Part shown: positions 3,288 to 24,068 of the stretch, in pieces
Numbering within the stretch: the stretch's first letter is position 1
How the letters are laid out: every line of letters starts with the position of its first letter
Source of the DNA: Candidatus Omnitrophota bacterium
GTDB taxonomy: Bacteria; Omnitrophota; Gorgyraeia; Aquiviventales; Aquiviventaceae
Assembly (NCBI GenBank): GCA_023247255.1
Contig: JAHFGV010000005.1
Coordinates: 6,067-70,066 of the forward strand
Reading direction: 5' to 3'
Length of the DNA: 64,000 bases
The notes under the pieces: generated by a model
Seen by the model: only the letters and a program-made list of their open reading frames with translations
Told to the model about the DNA's origin: nothing
Databases searched by the model: none
Made by a program: the position numbers and the translations under genes

Positions 3288-3550
3288 TGGGGGGAACGGG
3301 GTGGGAGACGTGGGGCGTGGGAGAACAGATTACAAGAGATAAAAAGTCCTACAACCGGTTTTAAAAAAGGGTTCTTCTGGTTTTGCAGTGGGTAAAAGGA
3401 GCAACACTTCCCTCTCCCAAAGGGAGAGGGAGAAGGGCATGCCCATATATCCCGGAAGCGCCTAAAAAAGAACGGGCGATGTCTAGCTTTCAAGATTTAT
3501 GGAGTGCTATTCGCACTTCCCTCGCCCCCCGCCCCGTTCCCTTTACCCCG
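3288..3550. repeat. G-rich / C-rich inverted-repeat element (MITE/REP-like) with an internal perfect 9-bp hairpin, splitting nuoJ from nuoK
   Basis: Arm ggggaacggggtgggagacgtggggcgtgggag (3291-3323) versus arm ccctcgccccccgccccgttccc (3519-3541). Hairpin ccctctccc-aaa-gggagaggg at 3411-3431. Confidence 0.55.
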
Positions 3551-3603: not shown

Positions 3604-3903
3604 ATGGAGCTGCGGATTCTACTTTGGTTGTCTTGCGGTTTGTTCTCGATTGGGGTCTACGGGATGCTGACTCGGCGACACGCGATCGGTCTTTTGCTTG
3701 CCCTGGAACTCATGCTCAACGCCGCGGCCTTGAACTTCGTGCTCTTTAGTCGATGGTTCGGCCATGTGCAGGCGCAAGCCTTCGCGCTTTTCATCATCGC
3801 CCTGGCTGCCTGTGAGGCGGTGGTTGGGCTTGCGATTATCATCAGCCTGGCCCGCAGCGCCCACACCGTACTCGTCGATGAAGCGAGCCTCTTAAAAGGA
3901 TGA
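3604..3903 (+). CDS. nuoK: NADH-quinone oxidoreductase subunit K
   Basis: MELRILLWLS...LELMLNAAALNFV, about 99 aa. Confidence 0.85.
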   Translation: MELRILLWLSCGLFSIGVYGMLTRRHAIGLLLALELMLNAAALNFVLFSRWFGHVQAQAFALFIIALAACEAVVGLAIIISLARSAHTVLVDEASLLKG

Positions 3904-5816
3904 AGATGCTTTTGTGGATTCCAGGCCTGCCTTTGTTGGCCGCTGCGATATTGCTGCTCGTTGGCAGACGCTTGGGACGCTGGAGTTCTCATGTGGCGAT
4001 TGCCGCCATGAGTGGTTCGGCGGCGTTGGTCTTCTTGATAGGGAGCTGGATTCTCGATGGTCATCGGTTAGGGGTGCGCTGGATATGGTTGTCCGCGCAA
4101 AAGCCACAGTGGTCGCTGGGTCTGGCCGTCGACGGATTGAGCTGGATCATGCTCGTTGTCGTTACCCTGATCGGTACGATGATTATGGTCTACTCAGTGG
4201 GCTACATGCACGCAGACGCACGGTTCAGTCGGTTTTTCGCCTACCTGTGTCTTTTCTGTGCTTCCATGCTGGGGTTGGTGATGGCCGATCATTTTTTACT
4301 GCTCTATGGCTGCTGGGAGCTCGTCGGGCTGTGTTCCTATTTATTGATCAGCTTCTGGTTTGAAAAGCCGGCTGCAGCCGCCGCGGGCCGGAAGGCTTTT
4401 ATCACGACTCGCATTGGGGATACGGGGCTGTTGCTGGGCATCTTTCTCTTAGCCCTGACGGTTGGCGATCTTCGTCTTCAGAATCTGGAAGTTATCCGTG
4501 CGCAGTTGAGCGAACGTTCCTGGCTCTTGACTCTGATCAGTACATTGATTTTTGTGGGAGCCATGGGCAAGTCCGCGCAAATTCCTCTTCATGTCTGGCT
4601 GCCGGATGCGATGGAGGGTCCGACTGCCGTATCCGCCCTCATCCATGCAGCGACGATGGTAGCGGCCGGGGTGTATCTTGTGGCGCGCAGTTTTGTTTTG
4701 TTCACCCCGCAGAGCCTCCAGGGGGTGTTGATCGTCGGACTGCTTACCCATCTTTTGGCCGGGACCGTCGCCCTGACGATGACCGACATCAAAAAGGTCC
4801 TGGCCTACTCGACCATCAGCCAGTTGGGGTTGATGATGACGGCCCTGGGTCTTGGGGCGCAGGCGGCGGCGATGTTTCACCTGTTCACTCATGCGTTCTT
4901 CAAGGCACTTTTGTTTTTGGCGGCCGGCAGCGTCATCCATGCTACCCATCAACAGGATCTTTCCCAGCTCGGTGGACTCTTCCGAAAGATGCGCGCGACG
5001 GCGATTTTGTTTCTCATCGGCGTTCTGTCGATGAGCGGTTTTCCCTTTCTGAGCGGATTCTGGAGCAAGGATGCAATCTTGGCGGCTGCGTTACACGATG
5101 TGCCGGCGCTCTTCTGGACGTTACTGGCTGGGGCGGTTTTGACAGCGAGTTATACATTCCGGTTGTTTCTGCGGTGCTTTCACGGCGAGTCGGCAGACGC
5201 AAGAGGGCACACAGCACACAGCGTGCATGAATCGCCGGCTATCATGCTTATACCCATGGCGGTCTTGGCTCTTGGAGCGGTCTTCGCCGGTCTTTTAGGA
5301 TCGCCGTGGCTGCATCAGCCGATCTTTCATCTGCTCGGTTCAAAACGCCTGCATGAAGGGATCGATGTGCCGATTTTGCTTTTGTCGAGCGGCGCTGTGG
5401 CTGTCGGATTCGCTCTGGCGTGGCTTTCGGGTTTCAAACGCCAGCTGCACCTGCCTGAATCCTTGCGTCCGTTGGGTCAATTTTTCTATCGGCTTTCGGT
5501 GAACAAATACTATGTGGATGAGGCTTATGACCGCTGGATCGTTCAGCCGTTTCAAGCAGCGACCCGCCGATTGTCCCAGTTTGATCAGCGCGTCATTGAT
5601 GGCAGCGTCAATGGGGTCGCCGAGTTGGGCTGGAAGCTCGGTCAGGGGAAAGAGCGTTTTGACGCCAAGGTTATCGATCGGCTCGTCAACGGCATTGCCA
5701 GTTCCACGCGCCGGATGGCGATGGGGCTTCGGCTGATTCAAACCGGTGTGATTCAAAACTACCTGCTGGCTGTTGTGGTCTCAGTGGTTGTGTTCGCCTG
5801 GCTGTTGCGTCCATAA
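3900..5816 (+). CDS. nuoL: NADH-quinone oxidoreductase subunit L
   Basis: 638 aa. WLPDAMEGPTAVSALIHAATMVAAGVYL motif. Confidence 0.9.
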   Translation: MKMLLWIPGLPLLAAAILLLVGRRLGRWSSHVAIAAMSGSAALVFLIGSWILDGHRLGVRWIWLSAQKPQWSLGLAVDGLSWIMLVVVTLIGTMIMVYSVGYMHADARFSRFFAYLCLFCASMLGLVMADHFLLLYGCWELVGLCSYLLISFWFEKPAAAAAGRKAFITTRIGDTGLLLGIFLLALTVGDLRLQNLEVIRAQLSERSWLLTLISTLIFVGAMGKSAQIPLHVWLPDAMEGPTAVSALIHAATMVAAGVYLVARSFVLFTPQSLQGVLIVGLLTHLLAGTVALTMTDIKKVLAYSTISQLGLMMTALGLGAQAAAMFHLFTHAFFKALLFLAAGSVIHATHQQDLSQLGGLFRKMRATAILFLIGVLSMSGFPFLSGFWSKDAILAAALHDVPALFWTLLAGAVLTASYTFRLFLRCFHGESADARGHTAHSVHESPAIMLIPMAVLALGAVFAGLLGSPWLHQPIFHLLGSKRLHEGIDVPILLLSSGAVAVGFALAWLSGFKRQLHLPESLRPLGQFFYRLSVNKYYVDEAYDRWIVQPFQAATRRLSQFDQRVIDGSVNGVAELGWKLGQGKERFDAKVIDRLVNGIASSTRRMAMGLRLIQTGVIQNYLLAVVVSVVVFAWLLRP

Positions 5817-5849
5817 ATTCCGCAGTTTTTAGCAGGATGCTAAAAGACC

Positions 5850-6330
5850 CACGGGATGCTAGAGTGCCTAACATAATGATCGCATGGTCGCGCTGGGCGT
5901 AATTGCTTCGATGCGCAAGACGCCAGGAGGAAGCCGTACTGATCCATAGAAGTACGGTGACGACGAGCAACGCAGCGCGGCGAAGCAATTCCGCCCAGCC
6001 CTTAGGGTTGCACTGAAAGATGGCCATCTGCTGCGTCGTTCCTCCTCGGCGTAGCGCTCCTTCGGCTACGCCTTCGTCGTCACTCCTTGCATCTGGGCCA
6101 TCTTTCAGTGCAACGCGGCCATGTGCTCATTATGTTAGGCACTCTTAGGCTGCTCAAAAAGGTGCGAGATGCAAGGCGCAGCTCGATTCGGCTGAGTCCT
6201 TTGACTATCGCTCAGGACTCAGCCCTGAGCAACGTCGAAGGGCTGAGGAGGCGCGTACTTTCAAGTACGCTGACGAAGCCGTCAGGCATACAACGCAGCA
6301 GATGTGTCTTTTTCAGCAGCCTGCTTAGGG
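5850..6330. repeat. Hairpin-dense nested inverted-repeat element (MITE-like or structured RNA) in the nuoL-nuoM intergenic region
   Basis: Terminal inverted repeat agagtgcctaacataatga (5861-5879) / tcattatgttaggcactct (6126-6144). Inner inverted repeat gttgcactgaaagatggcc (6007) / ggccatctttcagtgcaac (6097). Further hairpins at 5893/5979, 5933-5960, 6181-6215 and 6247-6290. Confidence 0.6.
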
Positions 6331-6340
6331 AGATGCGCAC

Positions 6341-7792
6341 ATGCTAAGTGTTTTGTTACTGTGTCCACTCATCGGGATGTTGGTGGTCTTGGCCTTGCCC
6401 AAGACAGCCGTGCGGGCCATTCGGTTTGTCGCTTTGCTCGCAAGCGGGCTGGCCTTGGCTTTTGCGATCCAGTTGTTCCAGTTCTTCCGGCCACAAGAGG
6501 CAATCCAGTTAGTCGAGCGGATAGTCTGGATCCCGCAGATGCGCATTTTCTATCACGTCGGTGTGGATGGGCTTAGCCTGCCTCTTGTGTTTTTAACCGT
6601 TCTGTTAGGGTTCATCGCCTGTCTGGCTTCCGCCTCCATCACCGAGCGTCAGAAAGAGTACTACGCCCTGTACCTGCTGTTGGAGATGGGGATGCTGGGC
6701 ACGTTCATGGCATTGGATTTTTTCTTGTTCTATGTCTTCTGGGAAGTGGTGTTGGTGCCGATGTATTTCTTGATCGGCATCTGGGGCGGCGGTCGTCGGG
6801 AATACTCGGCTTTTAAGTTTTTTGTCTACACCCTCGCCGGCAGCCTGGCGATATTGTTGGCCATCTTGATGCTTTATTTCCGCACGGGGACCTTTGATAT
6901 GGTTGCCCTTGCGCAGATGGGACCGTTGCTAGAGCCGGATCTCCAACGACTGCTTTTTGTGGCGTTCTTCTTGGGATTCGCCATCAAGGTTCCGGTTTTT
7001 CCATTCCACACCTGGCTTCCGGATGCGCACGTCGATGCCCCCACCCCGATCAGCGTCCTGTTGGCCGGGGTGTTGCTGAAAATGGGAGGCTACGGCTTTT
7101 TCCGTATCGCCTATCCTATCTGCCCTGAGGGGGCGCAATGGGCAGCAGGGGCGATGGCCGTTTTGGGGATGATCAACATTGTCTACGGCGCTTTCGTTGC
7201 GATGGCCCAGACCGATTTTAAGAAACTCGTCGCCTACTCTTCCGTTTCCCATATGGGATTTGTCCTGCTTGGGCTGGCGAGCCTTCAGACGGAAGGCGTC
7301 AACGGGGCATTGTTGCAGATGTTCAATCACGGCACGATCACCGGTGGCATGTTCTTGTTAGTCGGCGTGCTCTATGATCGGGCGCACACCCGAGACCTCA
7401 ATGCCTTCGGCGGGCTGGGCGCGCACATGCCTAAGTTTTCAGGATTGCTTATTTTTTTCGGGCTGGCTTCTTTAGGGCTTCCGGGTTTGAGTGGATTTGT
7501 GGGGGAATTTTTGTCTCTGCTGGGGGCCTTCGGGGTCTGGCGATGGCAGACGGTCGTCTCAGTGCTAGGAATCGTCGTCGCGGCGGCCTATATCCTCACG
7601 GCGATTCAGCGAGTCTTGCTGGGGCCGCCAAACGAACGCTGGAAAAATCTGCCGGATGTCAATCCGAGAGAGATGGCCAGCTTGATCCCGCTCGTTGTGC
7701 TTATCTTGGCGTTGGGGGTTTATCCTTTGTTATTGATCGATCTTCAGGATGGAGCGGTTCAGCAGTTTATCGCCCACGTCAAAGGACCGTAG
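6341..7792 (+). CDS. nuoM: NADH-quinone oxidoreductase subunit M
   Basis: 483 aa. HTWLPDAHVDAPTPISVLLAG motif. Confidence 0.9.
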   Translation: MLSVLLLCPLIGMLVVLALPKTAVRAIRFVALLASGLALAFAIQLFQFFRPQEAIQLVERIVWIPQMRIFYHVGVDGLSLPLVFLTVLLGFIACLASASITERQKEYYALYLLLEMGMLGTFMALDFFLFYVFWEVVLVPMYFLIGIWGGGRREYSAFKFFVYTLAGSLAILLAILMLYFRTGTFDMVALAQMGPLLEPDLQRLLFVAFFLGFAIKVPVFPFHTWLPDAHVDAPTPISVLLAGVLLKMGGYGFFRIAYPICPEGAQWAAGAMAVLGMINIVYGAFVAMAQTDFKKLVAYSSVSHMGFVLLGLASLQTEGVNGALLQMFNHGTITGGMFLLVGVLYDRAHTRDLNAFGGLGAHMPKFSGLLIFFGLASLGLPGLSGFVGEFLSLLGAFGVWRWQTVVSVLGIVVAAAYILTAIQRVLLGPPNERWKNLPDVNPREMASLIPLVVLILALGVYPLLLIDLQDGAVQQFIAHVKGP

Positions 7793-11260: not shown

Positions 11261-11773
11261 ATGCCTCCTATTCTGCAACTGGACGTCCAGCAGATTATTT
11301 CACAGGCCATCAGCTTTCTAATCCTGCTGTGGGTGCTTAAGCGTTTTGCCTGGCGTCCGCTGCTTTCGATGCTCGATCAGCGTCGGGAGCGTATCGATCA
11401 GGACTTAGCGCAGGCGGCGGCCAAGAAAGAAGAGCTGACGCGCCTTGAGGAAGACTACCGCAAGCGCTTGGCGGCGATCGACCAGGAAGCCCGGCTAAAG
11501 ATTCAGGAAGCTGTTCAGGAAGGCAAACAGGTGGCTATGGAGATTCAAGGACAGGCGCGTGTTGCGGCTCAAAACATCCTGGCGAAAGCCCAGGAAACGG
11601 TAGAGATGGAACTCTCCAAGGCTAAAGTTACATTGAGGGATCAAGTGGTTGAGATGACTTTAGAGGCGCTCGAACGCATGCTGCGCAAAAAACTCGACGC
11701 CCAGACGGATCGTCTGCTCATCGAAGCGTCCCTCGAAGAGCTGGAGCAGCAACAATCCACGAAGACTTCGTGA
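11261..11773 (+). CDS. atpF: F0F1 ATP synthase subunit b
   Basis: N-terminal TM helix followed by a long coiled-coil, 170 aa. Confidence 0.8.
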   Translation: MPPILQLDVQQIISQAISFLILLWVLKRFAWRPLLSMLDQRRERIDQDLAQAAAKKEELTRLEEDYRKRLAAIDQEARLKIQEAVQEGKQVAMEIQGQARVAAQNILAKAQETVEMELSKAKVTLRDQVVEMTLEALERMLRKKLDAQTDRLLIEASLEELEQQQSTKTS

Positions 11774-11780
11774 ATTGCCG

Positions 11781-11885
11781 ATTTTCGATTTTGGGCTGAG
11801 AGAATTTTCGATTGTAGATTTTAGATTGTCGATTGGAAAACACGACAAATCGACAATCGAAAATTGACAATCGACGATTCGTTGG
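11781..11885. repeat. Palindromic AATCGACAATCG repeat cluster (same family as 19266-19350)
   Basis: ttttcgattgtagattttagattgtcgattgg...aaatcgacaatcgaaaattgacaatcgacgattcg. Confidence 0.5.
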
Positions 11886-11940
11886 GCCTTAAGCCAAAAG
11901 CCTTGAGCAAACAGATATTTTCCGTAGCCTGCTAGTACGA

Positions 11941-19139: not shown

Positions 19140-19213
19140 GGGCGGTTAGCTCAGTTGGTTAGAGCGTCTGATTTACATTCAGAAGGTCGGGGGTTCGAGT
19201 CCTCCACCGCCCA
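19140..19213 (+). tRNA. tRNA-Val (anticodon TAC)
   Basis: Manual cloverleaf: acceptor GGGCGGT/ACCGCCC, D arm GCTC-AGTTGGTTA-GAGC, anticodon arm TCTGA-TTTACAT-TCAGA, T arm GGGGG-TTCGAGT-CCTCC. Confidence 0.85.
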
Positions 19214-19265: not shown

Positions 19266-19350
19266 ATCAAGAGAGCCGAGGGAATTGTCGATTGACGATT
19301 GTCGATTTTTGATTGAACGGCCGTCTTCCAATCGACAATCCAAAATCGAC
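19266..19350. repeat. Palindromic AATCGACAATCG repeat cluster (same family as 11781-11885)
   Basis: attgtcgattgacgattgtcgatttttgattg...caatcgacaatccaaaatcgacaatcgaaaatt. Confidence 0.45.
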
Positions 19351-19434
19351 AATCGAAAATTCCCAGGCTGTTTCATGATTCCTTAGGCGAGGCGGATGGC
19401 CGACCGGAACGAGCCGAAGGCGAGTGAAGGCGCC

Positions 19435-21134: not shown

Positions 21135-22136
21135 TTGCACAATTGCCCAATTTGTAGCATCCTATCCTTAACGCAGAGGAGGAACAAAGGCATGCTACGA
21201 TTTGCCAAACTCGTGCACCACCCGAGGAAACTCTACAGAATGACGGGACTTACGCTTGACCAGTTCCAGACGCTGACGAATCGGCTCACCCCGCTGTGGG
21301 AGCAAGCGGAACGGATGTGCCTCTCGCAGCGCAAGCGAAAGCCACGCCATCGGGAAAGAGTACCAAGTACAAGCTCTCCACGATGGCGGACAAACTCCTG
21401 TGCGTGCTCAGCTTCTACCGCTTCTACCTCTACCTTTGAGCTGCTCGGCTATCTCGTCGGCCTGGATGCCAGCAATATCTGTCGGCTAAAGCCTCGGCTC
21501 GAACCGCTCATTGAGCAGGCAGCCGATCCAAGCCTGGGGCTGTCGCTCCGCCGTCGGCTCCCGCCCGGCGTCAAGAGAATCGGCACCTGGGAGGAACTCG
21601 TGGAGCGCTGTCCGGACTTCGCAGACGTGGTCACTGATGCGACCAAGCAGGCACGACTCCGTCCACCGCGACGCACCCAGCGGCGCTGGTACTCCGGCAA
21701 ACGTAAGCGCCACACACTCAAGACGCAGTTGAGCATCACTCGGCAGAGTGGCCGGATCCTCCATATCAGTTCAACCGTCCCGGGCCGTGTCCATGACTAC
21801 GCGCTCTTGAAGCGGACGCGACTGGACGAACGGCTGCCGCCGAAGACGCGCCTCACCCTGGATCGGGGGTATGATGGTGCCATGACGGACTATCCGACTC
21901 CCGCTATCGCGCTGCCCGTCAAGCGTCGAGGCAACCACCAGGTCCTGACGCGCTCGGAGCGGGCATTCAACCGCCTCCAGGCGCGGCAGCGGATCATCGT
22001 GGAGCATGTCCCAAGTTGCGTGAAGAAGTACCAGCTCCTCGCGCAGGTCTACCGCCACCGGATCGCGGACTACAACCACCGCTTTCGCAACATTGCGGCC
22101 TTGACGAACTTCCGCCTAACGCCGACGGTGACGTAA
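21135..22136 (+). mobile_element. IS5-family (DDE) transposase gene. The ORF is open, but an approximately 95-nt internal stretch reads in the ancestral frame only when shifted
   Basis: LTLDQF...LWEQAE...RKRK...YSGKRKRHTLK motifs. The conserved KLSTMADKLLCVLSFYRFYL block appears only in an alternate frame around 21345-21435, then returns to TFELLGYLVG. Confidence 0.7.
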
Positions 22137-23123: not shown

Positions 23124-23366
23124 ATGGCAAAAGTGGTCACGGTACGGCTTTCGGAGGAGGACTATCGAAAGATTGCAGCCGTCGCAAAACGTGAGCGGCG
23201 CCCGCTTTCGAACTTTATGACGCTGATGGTGATCAAGGGCATCGAGGAGGGCGATTACGTCGATGCCGTGGAGATGGATCAGATCCTCGCGGACAAGTCT
23301 CTGAGGGCTAAGTTACGGGCAGGGCACTACGACGCCAAGCGACGCAAAGGCAAGCTCGTTGGCTGA
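23124..23366 (+). CDS. Ribbon-helix-helix (CopG/ParD-like) antitoxin
   Basis: 80 aa. VTVRLSEEDYRKIAAVAKRERRPLSNFM RHH motif. Overlaps the toxin start. Confidence 0.7.
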   Translation: MAKVVTVRLSEEDYRKIAAVAKRERRPLSNFMTLMVIKGIEEGDYVDAVEMDQILADKSLRAKLRAGHYDAKRRKGKLVG

Positions 23367-23637
23367 TTTTCGTATCTTCGAGACCTCACAGTTTCAGAAG
23401 GACCTTCAGCAGGACTTCCGAGGGCAACAGGCGCGCATTGAACGCAAGCTCGCCACGTATGTCTATCCCCAGCTGCGAGCGAATTCCTACATCGGGAAGA
23501 ATATCAAGAAACTTCGGGATGCCGTTCCTGAGACCTGGCGGTATCGCATCGGGGATTACCGATTTTTCTACAGGGTCGATGAGCGGCAACGACTCATCTT
23601 TATGCTGACTGCCGACCATCGTGGTCACGCGTATTGA
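23359..23637 (+). CDS. RelE/ParE-family toxin
   Basis: 92 aa. RYRIGDYRFFYRVDERQRLIFMLTADHRGHAY. Confidence 0.75.
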   Translation: MADFRIFETSQFQKDLQQDFRGQQARIERKLATYVYPQLRANSYIGKNIKKLRDAVPETWRYRIGDYRFFYRVDERQRLIFMLTADHRGHAY

Positions 23638-23768
23638 ACGATAACCCTGAAGTGATCAGCTTAACAGTTGACGGCAGGAAAAATCCACGATACCATCATC
23701 CCCTCGACGAGAAGCTGGAAGATTTTCTCTCATTACACACTCCACCTTAAACATTACACAGCTTTTCA

Positions 23769-23842
23769 GGGGGCGTAGCTCAATTGGTTAGAGTGGCGGC
23801 CTGTCGAGCCGTAGGTTGCGGGTTCGAGCCCCGTCGCCCCCG
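23769..23842 (+). tRNA. tRNA-Asp (anticodon GTC)
   Basis: Manual cloverleaf: acceptor GGGGGCG/CGCCCCC, anticodon arm GCGGC-CTGTCGA-GCCGT, T arm GCGGG-TTCGAGC-CCCGT, discriminator G. Confidence 0.85.
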
Positions 23843-23889
23843 TTTTTGAACTGACGGAAGCCGTTATCTCGGAAGAGGTGACGGCTTCG

Positions 23890-24068
23890 TCGTCTTCTGG
23901 GATGAAAAAACGTAACCGGGTTGAAGCTGTTTTTATGATGATCCACAGCCAGCTCTTGTACGAAATTCTCAGCCGGTTGATCCATCGGACCGAGAAGTCG
24001 TGGAACGTGTAACCGCAGCGTTTACAGCGGTACCGTTTACCCACGATCCTTTGGTTTTTCAAGCACAC
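23890..24068 (-). pseudogene. N-terminal zinc-ribbon fragment of an IS1595/IS1-InsA-like transposase
   Basis: MCLKNQRIVGKRYRCKRCGYTFHDFSVRWINRLRISYKSWLWII. The remainder of the listed ORF is antisense of tRNA-Asp. Confidence 0.45.

Follow-up and report, generated by a model that had tools for sequence, protein, structure and literature searches.

The question raised by this locus is what separates nuoL from nuoM, and how it came to be there, in a window of 64,000 nucleotides from a Candidatus Omnitrophota bacterium (contig JAHFGV010000005.1), this window being the whole stretch of DNA that was analysed. According to the ORF list, the nuoL-nuoM spacer covers 5817-6340, that is, 524 bp. On its 5' side lies a 638-aa ORF on the plus strand (3900..5816) whose homologues are NuoL, NADH-quinone oxidoreductase subunit L (PF00662/PF00361); its best named matches are Candidatus Omnitrophica MAG proteins at 65-68% identity, none being closer except its own record; together with the gene order treated below, this one protein is the basis for placing the window among Omnitrophota. 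On the 3' side, also on the plus strand, lies the 483-aa nuoM ORF (6341..7792), at a place where the relatives have a gene with PF00361. The initial annotation had described a hairpin-dense inverted-repeat gap of 520 bp, which is real, and had left it undecided whether this was a MITE, a structured ncRNA or a recombination site. Here we argue that the spacer very probably consists of a non-autonomous transposable element (MITE) at 5862-6144, placed beside a second, older foldback at 6148-6324, and that the element belongs to a family present in multiple copies in uncultured Burkholderiales MAGs and associated with a TNA duplication.

Three relatives keep the same gene order, with DHO_dh (pyrD), OMPdecase (pyrF), Pribosyltran (pyrE) and nuoJ, K, L, M and N, and their nuoL-nuoM gaps measure 13, 27 and 239 bp; the 524 bp of the window are therefore an insertion. 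With the two units subtracted, the spacer would measure about 58 bp. This remainder includes an A/T-rich mini-hairpin at 5826-5846, TTTTAGCA-gga-TGCTAAAA, which was read in the sequence, is paired in the folds of both strands, is followed by no T-run and was probably part of the original spacer. It also includes GGGAG, a ribosome-binding-like motif 8 nt 5' of the nuoM ATG at 6341 (6328..6343, plus strand). In an Omnitrophota-like relative (L117, 4442-4680), the 239-bp nuoL-nuoM gap holds two unrelated G/C-rich hairpins, CCACCCCC...GGGGGTGG. Since these hairpins are different, the spacer has been independently colonised there by another palindromic repeat and, given insertions in both genomes, the nuoL-nuoM spacer tolerates such events. 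Other inverted repeats occur among the neighbouring genes of the window. An intergenic foldback of TGTCATG/TTTCATG words lies at 2452-2629, just 5' of a nuoJ-like ORF, with 44-nt arms that are 82% complementary and a 24-nt pair that is 96% complementary, and G-run/C-run inverted repeats (GGGGxGGGG vs CCCCxCCCC) lie at 3292-3322 / 3511-3541 and at 480-556, one across the start of a nuoK-like ORF and one within the first ORF.

A repeat finder run over 5600-6500 returned 16 inverted pairs. The outer arms, 5861-5895 / 6111-6145, are 35 nt long and 89% complementary, and contain a perfect 19-mer (5861-5879 / 6127-6145); further inward come a 25-nt pair (5892-5916 / 5975-5999) and a perfect pair matching at 19 of 19 positions (6007-6025 / 6096-6114), while a separate 15-nt pair (6147-6161 / 6308-6322) bounds a second unit. 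Both nested pairs of the initial annotation thus exist, with one-base offsets in its coordinates, the right arms being 6127-6145 and 6096-6114; its treatment of the region as a single element does not hold, as a complete element at 5862-6144 stands next to a separate foldback at 6148-6324.

The first unit, 283 bp long, is built of an outer stem, two hairpin arms, each about 100 nt long, and a short linker. On its left side, the outer stem is made by a terminal inverted repeat of about 30 bp (5862-5891, plus strand), which begins GAGTGCCTAACATAATGA and carries the terminus common to at least 115 stretches elsewhere. Arm 1 (5892-5999, plus strand), delimited by an inverted pair and by the folds, is a hairpin of 108 nt whose internal loops read GCGCAAG / GCAACGCAG and whose tip is GTACT...AGTAC. 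A junction linker of 7 nt (6000-6006, plus strand) follows, within the window motif CCAGCCCTTAGGGTTGC and the conserved CCAGCCC-nnnn-GGGTTGC, whose columns are invariant in the family alignment A1. Arm 2 (6007-6114, plus strand), also a hairpin of 108 nt, has at its base a perfect stem of 19 bp, seen both in the repeats and in the folds. The right terminal inverted repeat (6115-6144, plus strand), supported by the repeats and by alignment A1, forms the second side of the outer stem and ends in TCATTATGTTAGGCACTC. The unit is flanked by CTA (5859-5861), which by comparison with the flanks of family copies is a degenerate copy of a 3-bp target-site duplication, and by TTA (6145-6147), the other copy. 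The second unit (6148-6324, plus strand), delimited by its inverted pair and the DNA fold, is a looser foldback with GGCTGCTCAAAAAG / CTTTTTCAGCAGCC at its bounds and TTA on each side (6145-6147 and 6325-6327), after which comes GGGAG; the TTA at 6145-6147 possibly doubles as its left duplication copy. Its similarity to the arms and linker of the first unit is weak, the local alignments scoring z = 5.4 (0 of 300 shuffles) and z = 3.7 (2 of 300). As a family member it is not significant in nhmmer, and the relation is drawn solely from these shuffle-tested alignments, and the 64-kb window contains one complete copy and a possibly related foldback.

The RNA fold of the spacer, predicted as the initial annotation had proposed, reaches -258.6 kcal/mol against -189 +/- 7 in shuffles (z = -9.95), and the opposite strand gives z = -9.84. 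With DNA parameters, the first unit has z = -11.5 and the second z = -3.6, and 73% of the bases of the first unit are paired in its minimum-energy fold. For the outer and the inner 19-mer alike, the window contains exactly two occurrences, one on each strand, and 100 shuffles contained none. The GC content of the element (57.6%) agrees with that of the window (57.9%); the Burkholderiales copies described below, at 56%, are lower than their hosts (62%).

The 19-nt terminus was scanned against 185,579 species-representative genomes and returned at least 115 stretches, nearly all of them in MAGs of uncultured Betaproteobacteria/Burkholderiales that come from groundwater, soil and lakes, with several bins under implausible names. 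Among the matches listed, more than 20 stretches with the terminus come from the single MAG JACQOK01, nearly all loci hold one element each, and 21 of the 43 whole-contig loci end within the element, as a multi-copy repeat would be expected to make short-read assemblies do. Viral contigs searched with the terminus gave no match, nor did a plasmid collection compared with the family element and with the window spacer. The Burkholderiales copies are intergenic, and their orientation to neighbouring genes is even, at 4 vs 4.

Allowing up to 3 mismatches in the ends, 49 complete copies were recovered among the matches listed, of which 48 have scorable flanks, and they fall into a modular series of lengths. 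Nineteen copies of 46-62 bp consist of the outer hairpin only (18 of the 48 complete copies being shorter than 60 bp), two measure about 123-175 bp, the 175-bp copy having one arm, 21 of 263-268 bp carry two arms, and six of 298-445 bp are enlarged by additional sequence, in some by a nested palindrome about 147 bp long. This palindrome, GGAGCAGG...CCTGCTCC, sits in one arm of three 413-bp variants (L061 2403-2815, L076 3300-3712 and L085 3758-4170), which represent a nested insertion that later spread as a subfamily. At the Burkholderiales loci, solo arm matches account for 2 of 108, both remnant-like, and arms are otherwise found within copies bounded by the terminal repeats; the arms therefore belong to the unit and are not independent insertions. 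An element of about 160 bp in a Planctomycetota MAG (L099, ~6540-6700) agrees with the family at its left terminus; its right terminus is degenerate, its interior is unrelated, and TTA stands on both sides of it.

Membership of the window copy in this family is visible beyond its ends. BLASTN of the window element against the family seeded only the termini, about 35 nt, but a profile HMM built from 22 Burkholderiales two-arm copies, with the window excluded, matched 5862-6144 over all 266 positions, with E = 4.3e-16, or 1e-9 in the opposite orientation. Columns 1-18 of A1, the left terminus, are invariant or nearly so, arm 1 aligns to family arm A in both alignment and profile, and the window and the family alignment have in common the frames GCGCTGG, ATT-TG, CCAGCCC-nnnn-GGGTTGC and GCAACGC. 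The internal-loop motifs correspond as well, GCGCAAG in the window to CGCGAAG in the family and GCAACGCAG to GCGACAAAG. Judged by its sequence, the window element is a full member of the family. Two observations weigh against the transposable-element reading at this point. The check that the initial annotation had suggested, BLASTN for further copies, produced no second copy of the first unit within the 64-kb window, and neither did repeat words or the family profile. Besides, the window's own arm variant found no match elsewhere in genome, metagenome and protein searches; the arm-2 19-mer gave five single unpaired matches in metagenomes, in unrelated contexts, as expected by chance.

The single copy in the window is also what would be anticipated if the spacer were a chance or locally evolved divergent sequence, unrelated to any other, the outcome that the initial annotation had associated with a lack of copies and of compensatory changes. 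Against this stand a fold z of about -10, repeat words that appear in none of 100 shuffles, at least 115 related stretches elsewhere and a profile match at E = 4e-16, such that a chance origin is hardly conceivable.

How the element reached its sites can be read from the flanks, for which it was defined as GAGTGCC...GGCACTC. Among the matches listed, identical 3-bp flanks border 31 of 48 copies (TTA in 20, TAA in 10 and TGA in 1), and reverse-complement flanks, as expected of an extended inverted repeat, occur in 4 of 48. Immediately 5' of the left copy, C or T is found in 43 of 48 cases, and immediately 3' of the right copy, G or A in 43 of 49. These flank identities and outer bases therefore define a Y|TWA|R target of which 3 bp are duplicated; duplication of 5 bp was rejected, the outer bases mismatching in 20 of 48 copies. 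The flanks of the window copy differ by one base (CTA / TTA), which counts against a transposed element, and the same combination is found in two other copies.

These flanks bear on two other ways in which palindromes can populate genomes. One is that the family is a REP/BIME/REPIN-type palindrome spread by a RAYT (an IS200/IS605-like Y1 enzyme) and not by a DDE transposase. The family resembles such systems in being palindromic, intergenic, many-copy and modular, with hairpin-only, one-arm, two-arm and nested forms; hairpin-only forms of about 50 bp are common, and no DDE partner was found. Most copies, however, have a 3-bp direct duplication, and REP/REPIN spread is not known to leave a target duplication. 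The termini here are moreover long and perfect (GAGTGCC...), in contrast to short imperfect palindromes with a conserved 5' GTAG, and neither a Y1 transposase cluster nor a RAYT gene appears among the ORFs of the at least 115 loci listed, which together make spread of this type very improbable.

The other is the recombination site of the initial annotation, whether integron attC-like or Xer/dif-like. It draws on the GCCTAAC ... GTTAGGC of the terminus, which would fit the attC R''/R' consensus, RYYYAAC / GTTRRRY, and on TAACATAA, which may resemble the XerD arm of dif. The copies are nevertheless single and dispersed, with no cassette arrays and, in the at least 115 loci listed, no integrase cluster. 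Their symmetric hairpins show none of the asymmetric extrahelical bases that attC has, their half-sites lie 18-250 bp apart vs 6-8 bp, and their duplicated TNA flanks indicate staggered-cut transposition. We regard a site for a site-specific recombinase as extremely unlikely, and this one of the three original possibilities is not supported.

Returning to the MITE, the type of duplication suggests which enzymes could have moved it. The termini begin with GAG, as presumably do the IS1031-group ends in ISfinder. Duplication of TWA and C|TNA|G is a hallmark of the PIF/Harbinger-ISL2EU-IS5 (PHIS) superfamily, whose elements and MITEs (Tourist-like; NuwaII, with C|TNA|G; the IS1031 group) have in common with the present family the 3-bp TWA/TNA duplication and the C/T and G/A flanks (PMC4482050), and within IS5 the members of the IS1031 group are described as commonly having an insertion site of three nucleotides (PMC2516522). 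The likeness has its bounds, as no cognate transposase was found here, and Tourist and NuwaII belong to eukaryotes. In about 700 kb of family loci, in plasmids and in viral contigs, the search for an autonomous element with such ends found none; no transposase emerged from ORF clustering of the at least 115 loci listed or from tblastn with the window's own IS5-like transposase; and the largest ORFs beside 15 unpaired ends encode Bug-family binding proteins, hydrolases and similar products, with no transposase among them. The missing autonomous element counts against the transposable-element reading, as does the fact that no pairs of empty and filled sites were recovered among the loci.

The window itself contains an IS5-family transposase gene 15 kb away (21135-22136, with ends at ~21122 and ~22196; DDE_Tnp_4, E = 6e-21), for which NCBIfam IS5 models remain below cut-off and which is bounded by imperfect terminal repeats of its own, about 22 bp long, TAGAYCTRTTGCRCARTTGCCC, with flanks readable as a TA or an ATT duplication. 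As a partner for the MITE it was rejected, its ends being unrelated to the MITE termini, and this too counts against the reading. Further features were noted elsewhere in the window. Two intergenic patches of one A/T-rich palindromic motif, CGATTGTCGATTTT / AATCGACAATCGAAAAT, at 11768-11899 and 19284-19360, represent a second dispersed repeat in the genome, one of them just downstream of tRNA-Val (19140-19213). A ParE-toxin-like ORF lies at 23359-23637 (Pfam E = 2e-6), and a 100-aa ORF on the minus strand (23766-24068), with a CxxC...CxxC-like N-terminus, overlaps tRNA-Asp (23769-23842) and is probably spurious.

Under the mechanism that we propose, a PHIS-type DDE transposase supplied in trans would have bound the terminal repeats and moved the first unit, cutting Y|TWA|R with a stagger of 3 nt, and gap repair would have duplicated the TNA. 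The unit probably inserted into a TTA already present beside the second unit, an event made probable because each insertion regenerates a target, and the spacer of about 58 bp would thereby have grown to 524 bp. The element would then be co-transcribed within the nuo operon, nuoM keeping its own GGGAG. As for the upkeep of the fold, it might reflect a foldback uniting the two ends, self-templated correction or homogenisation of palindromes, or a genuine structural function.

The conservation of this fold is pronounced. All two-arm copies fold as outer stem, arm, mini-hairpin and arm, and arm B corresponds to the reverse complement of arm A; the element is therefore a palindrome of palindromes. 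In alignment A1, which comprises 23 copies, standard pairs occupy 93.9% of cells vs 84.2% in column shuffles, and 29 of 71 pairs have changed on both sides, against a shuffle mean of 20.8 and with 0 of 500 shuffles reaching 29, while a control in which partners were slid by 1-3 columns gave 30-46% paired. The mini-hairpin between the arms is made by CCAGCCC-nnnn-GGGTTGC, helix 6 being paired in 96.7%. The termini are invariant over the 23 aligned copies, paired and unpaired columns of arm A are equally conserved (0.81 vs 0.82), and variation is concentrated in the arm tips, in a pattern resembling swapped modules.

Such features invite the view, also raised by the initial annotation, that the spacer is a structured ncRNA or a cis-regulatory nuo leader selected as RNA, for example for a role in processing or stabilisation between the two genes. 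The stability of the fold is very high, compensatory changes and conserved unpaired motifs extend family-wide, the element lies within an operon on the coding strand, and G-U cells outnumber A-C cells on the aligned strand. Nonetheless, Rfam 15 gave no match at E <= 1 over 5000-7000 on either strand, the two strands fold equally well, and copies occur beside unrelated neighbour genes in either orientation. The copies have target-site duplications and break assemblies, the relatives have no such spacer, and a terminator scan of the spacer detected no terminator-like site. A dedicated RNA is in our judgement quite improbable, and of the three possibilities first listed it is the MITE that stands, as a dispersed multi-copy family with terminal inverted repeats.

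A different reading places selection on the fold itself. The four-way structure could be a selected, structured ssDNA or RNA module for a structure-specific enzyme or host factor, spread among co-occurring groundwater Burkholderiales, Omnitrophota and Planctomycetota, instead of a passive MITE mobilised by a DDE enzyme. The near-invariant loops CGCGAAG / GCGACAAAG, together with covarying stems, are unneeded in a purely passive element and thus count against the MITE. The points left to a functional fold are the lack of a transposase partner, the covarying stems, the loop motifs common to the window and the Burkholderiales copies, and the truncated ends that donate start codons. On balance we consider it unlikely, though deserving of mention, and retain the MITE as the explanation of the spacer.

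The element has no coding capacity, being 283 bp long with ORFs that are translated repeat. The two mirrored ORFs that the initial annotation had dismissed are indeed not genes, as they read across the terminal repeats, the minus-strand frame giving HAIIMLGTLA and the plus-strand frame HVLIMLGTLR. A search of 5.8 billion proteins, in which spurious ORFs of sister copies would also have surfaced, returned no homologue of the plus-strand translation. Similar translations have entered the databases: 54 clusters (P0121-P0174; JGI/ENA/NCBI data) of 'hypothetical protein' of about 81 aa are the translated two-arm element, their 81-codon ORF starting at the ATG of the terminal repeat, with no Pfam domain and on contigs mostly of 0.5-1.5 kb, and are probable annotation artefacts.

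Truncated copies meet genes in another way. At several Burkholderiales loci, one-ended copies adjoin genes and place an in-frame start ATG in the terminal repeat (ATAATGA; L071 4492, L038 6131, L059 2176 and L048 1707), the genes started in this manner encoding a 711-aa SulP-type permease, a 329-aa Bug-family binding protein and ORFs of 261 and 69 aa. Other elements, L045, L052 and L106 among several, begin exactly at a TAA stop codon. Bug-family genes (tripartite tricarboxylate transporter substrate-binding) are present in 44 of the 115 element-bearing 8-kb stretches among the matches listed, as 78 ORFs; either these genomes are extremely Bug-rich or the element prefers Bug neighbourhoods.

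Set against described families, the element is of a familiar kind with a distinctive interior. The Correia element (NEMIS) has 26-bp TATAGTGGATTAA-type repeats and a TA duplication, whereas the duplication here is a 3-bp TNA, and the termini differ. Like bacterial MITEs in general (Correia/NEMIS of Neisseria, ERIC, QMITE of Coxiella), the family is 50-450 bp long, non-coding, intergenic and multi-copy, with terminal inverted repeats and short duplications, those MITEs often being co-transcribed and their transcripts forming very stable stem-loops (PMC10969869). Unlike the named bacterial families found, to which its sequence is unrelated, it has a conserved four-way fold with two 100-nt arms and not a single hairpin. 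Nested MITEs offer a parallel in the inner palindrome of the 413-bp variants and in the adjoining of both units at a common TTA, but the arms of the basic element are part of the unit. The terminus strings were absent from about 8 million full texts and no paper linking MITEs with Omnitrophota was found; the family appears to be undescribed and unnamed.

For the nuo operon, the consequence is that two false ORFs drop out of its annotation, and for Burkholderiales MAGs, the MITE accounts for a set of 81-aa 'hypothetical proteins' and for many contig breaks. Its ends are also a source of start codons for host genes. The termini are identical in an Omnitrophota-like genome and in Burkholderiales, with a variant in a Planctomycetota MAG, which points to exchange of transposase and MITE between phyla in common groundwater and sediment habitats. 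The finding does not overturn current understanding, as the element is of an ordinary kind with an unusually well-kept branched fold. The family provides a clean natural data set on why a mobile element retains a four-way fold through compensatory change.
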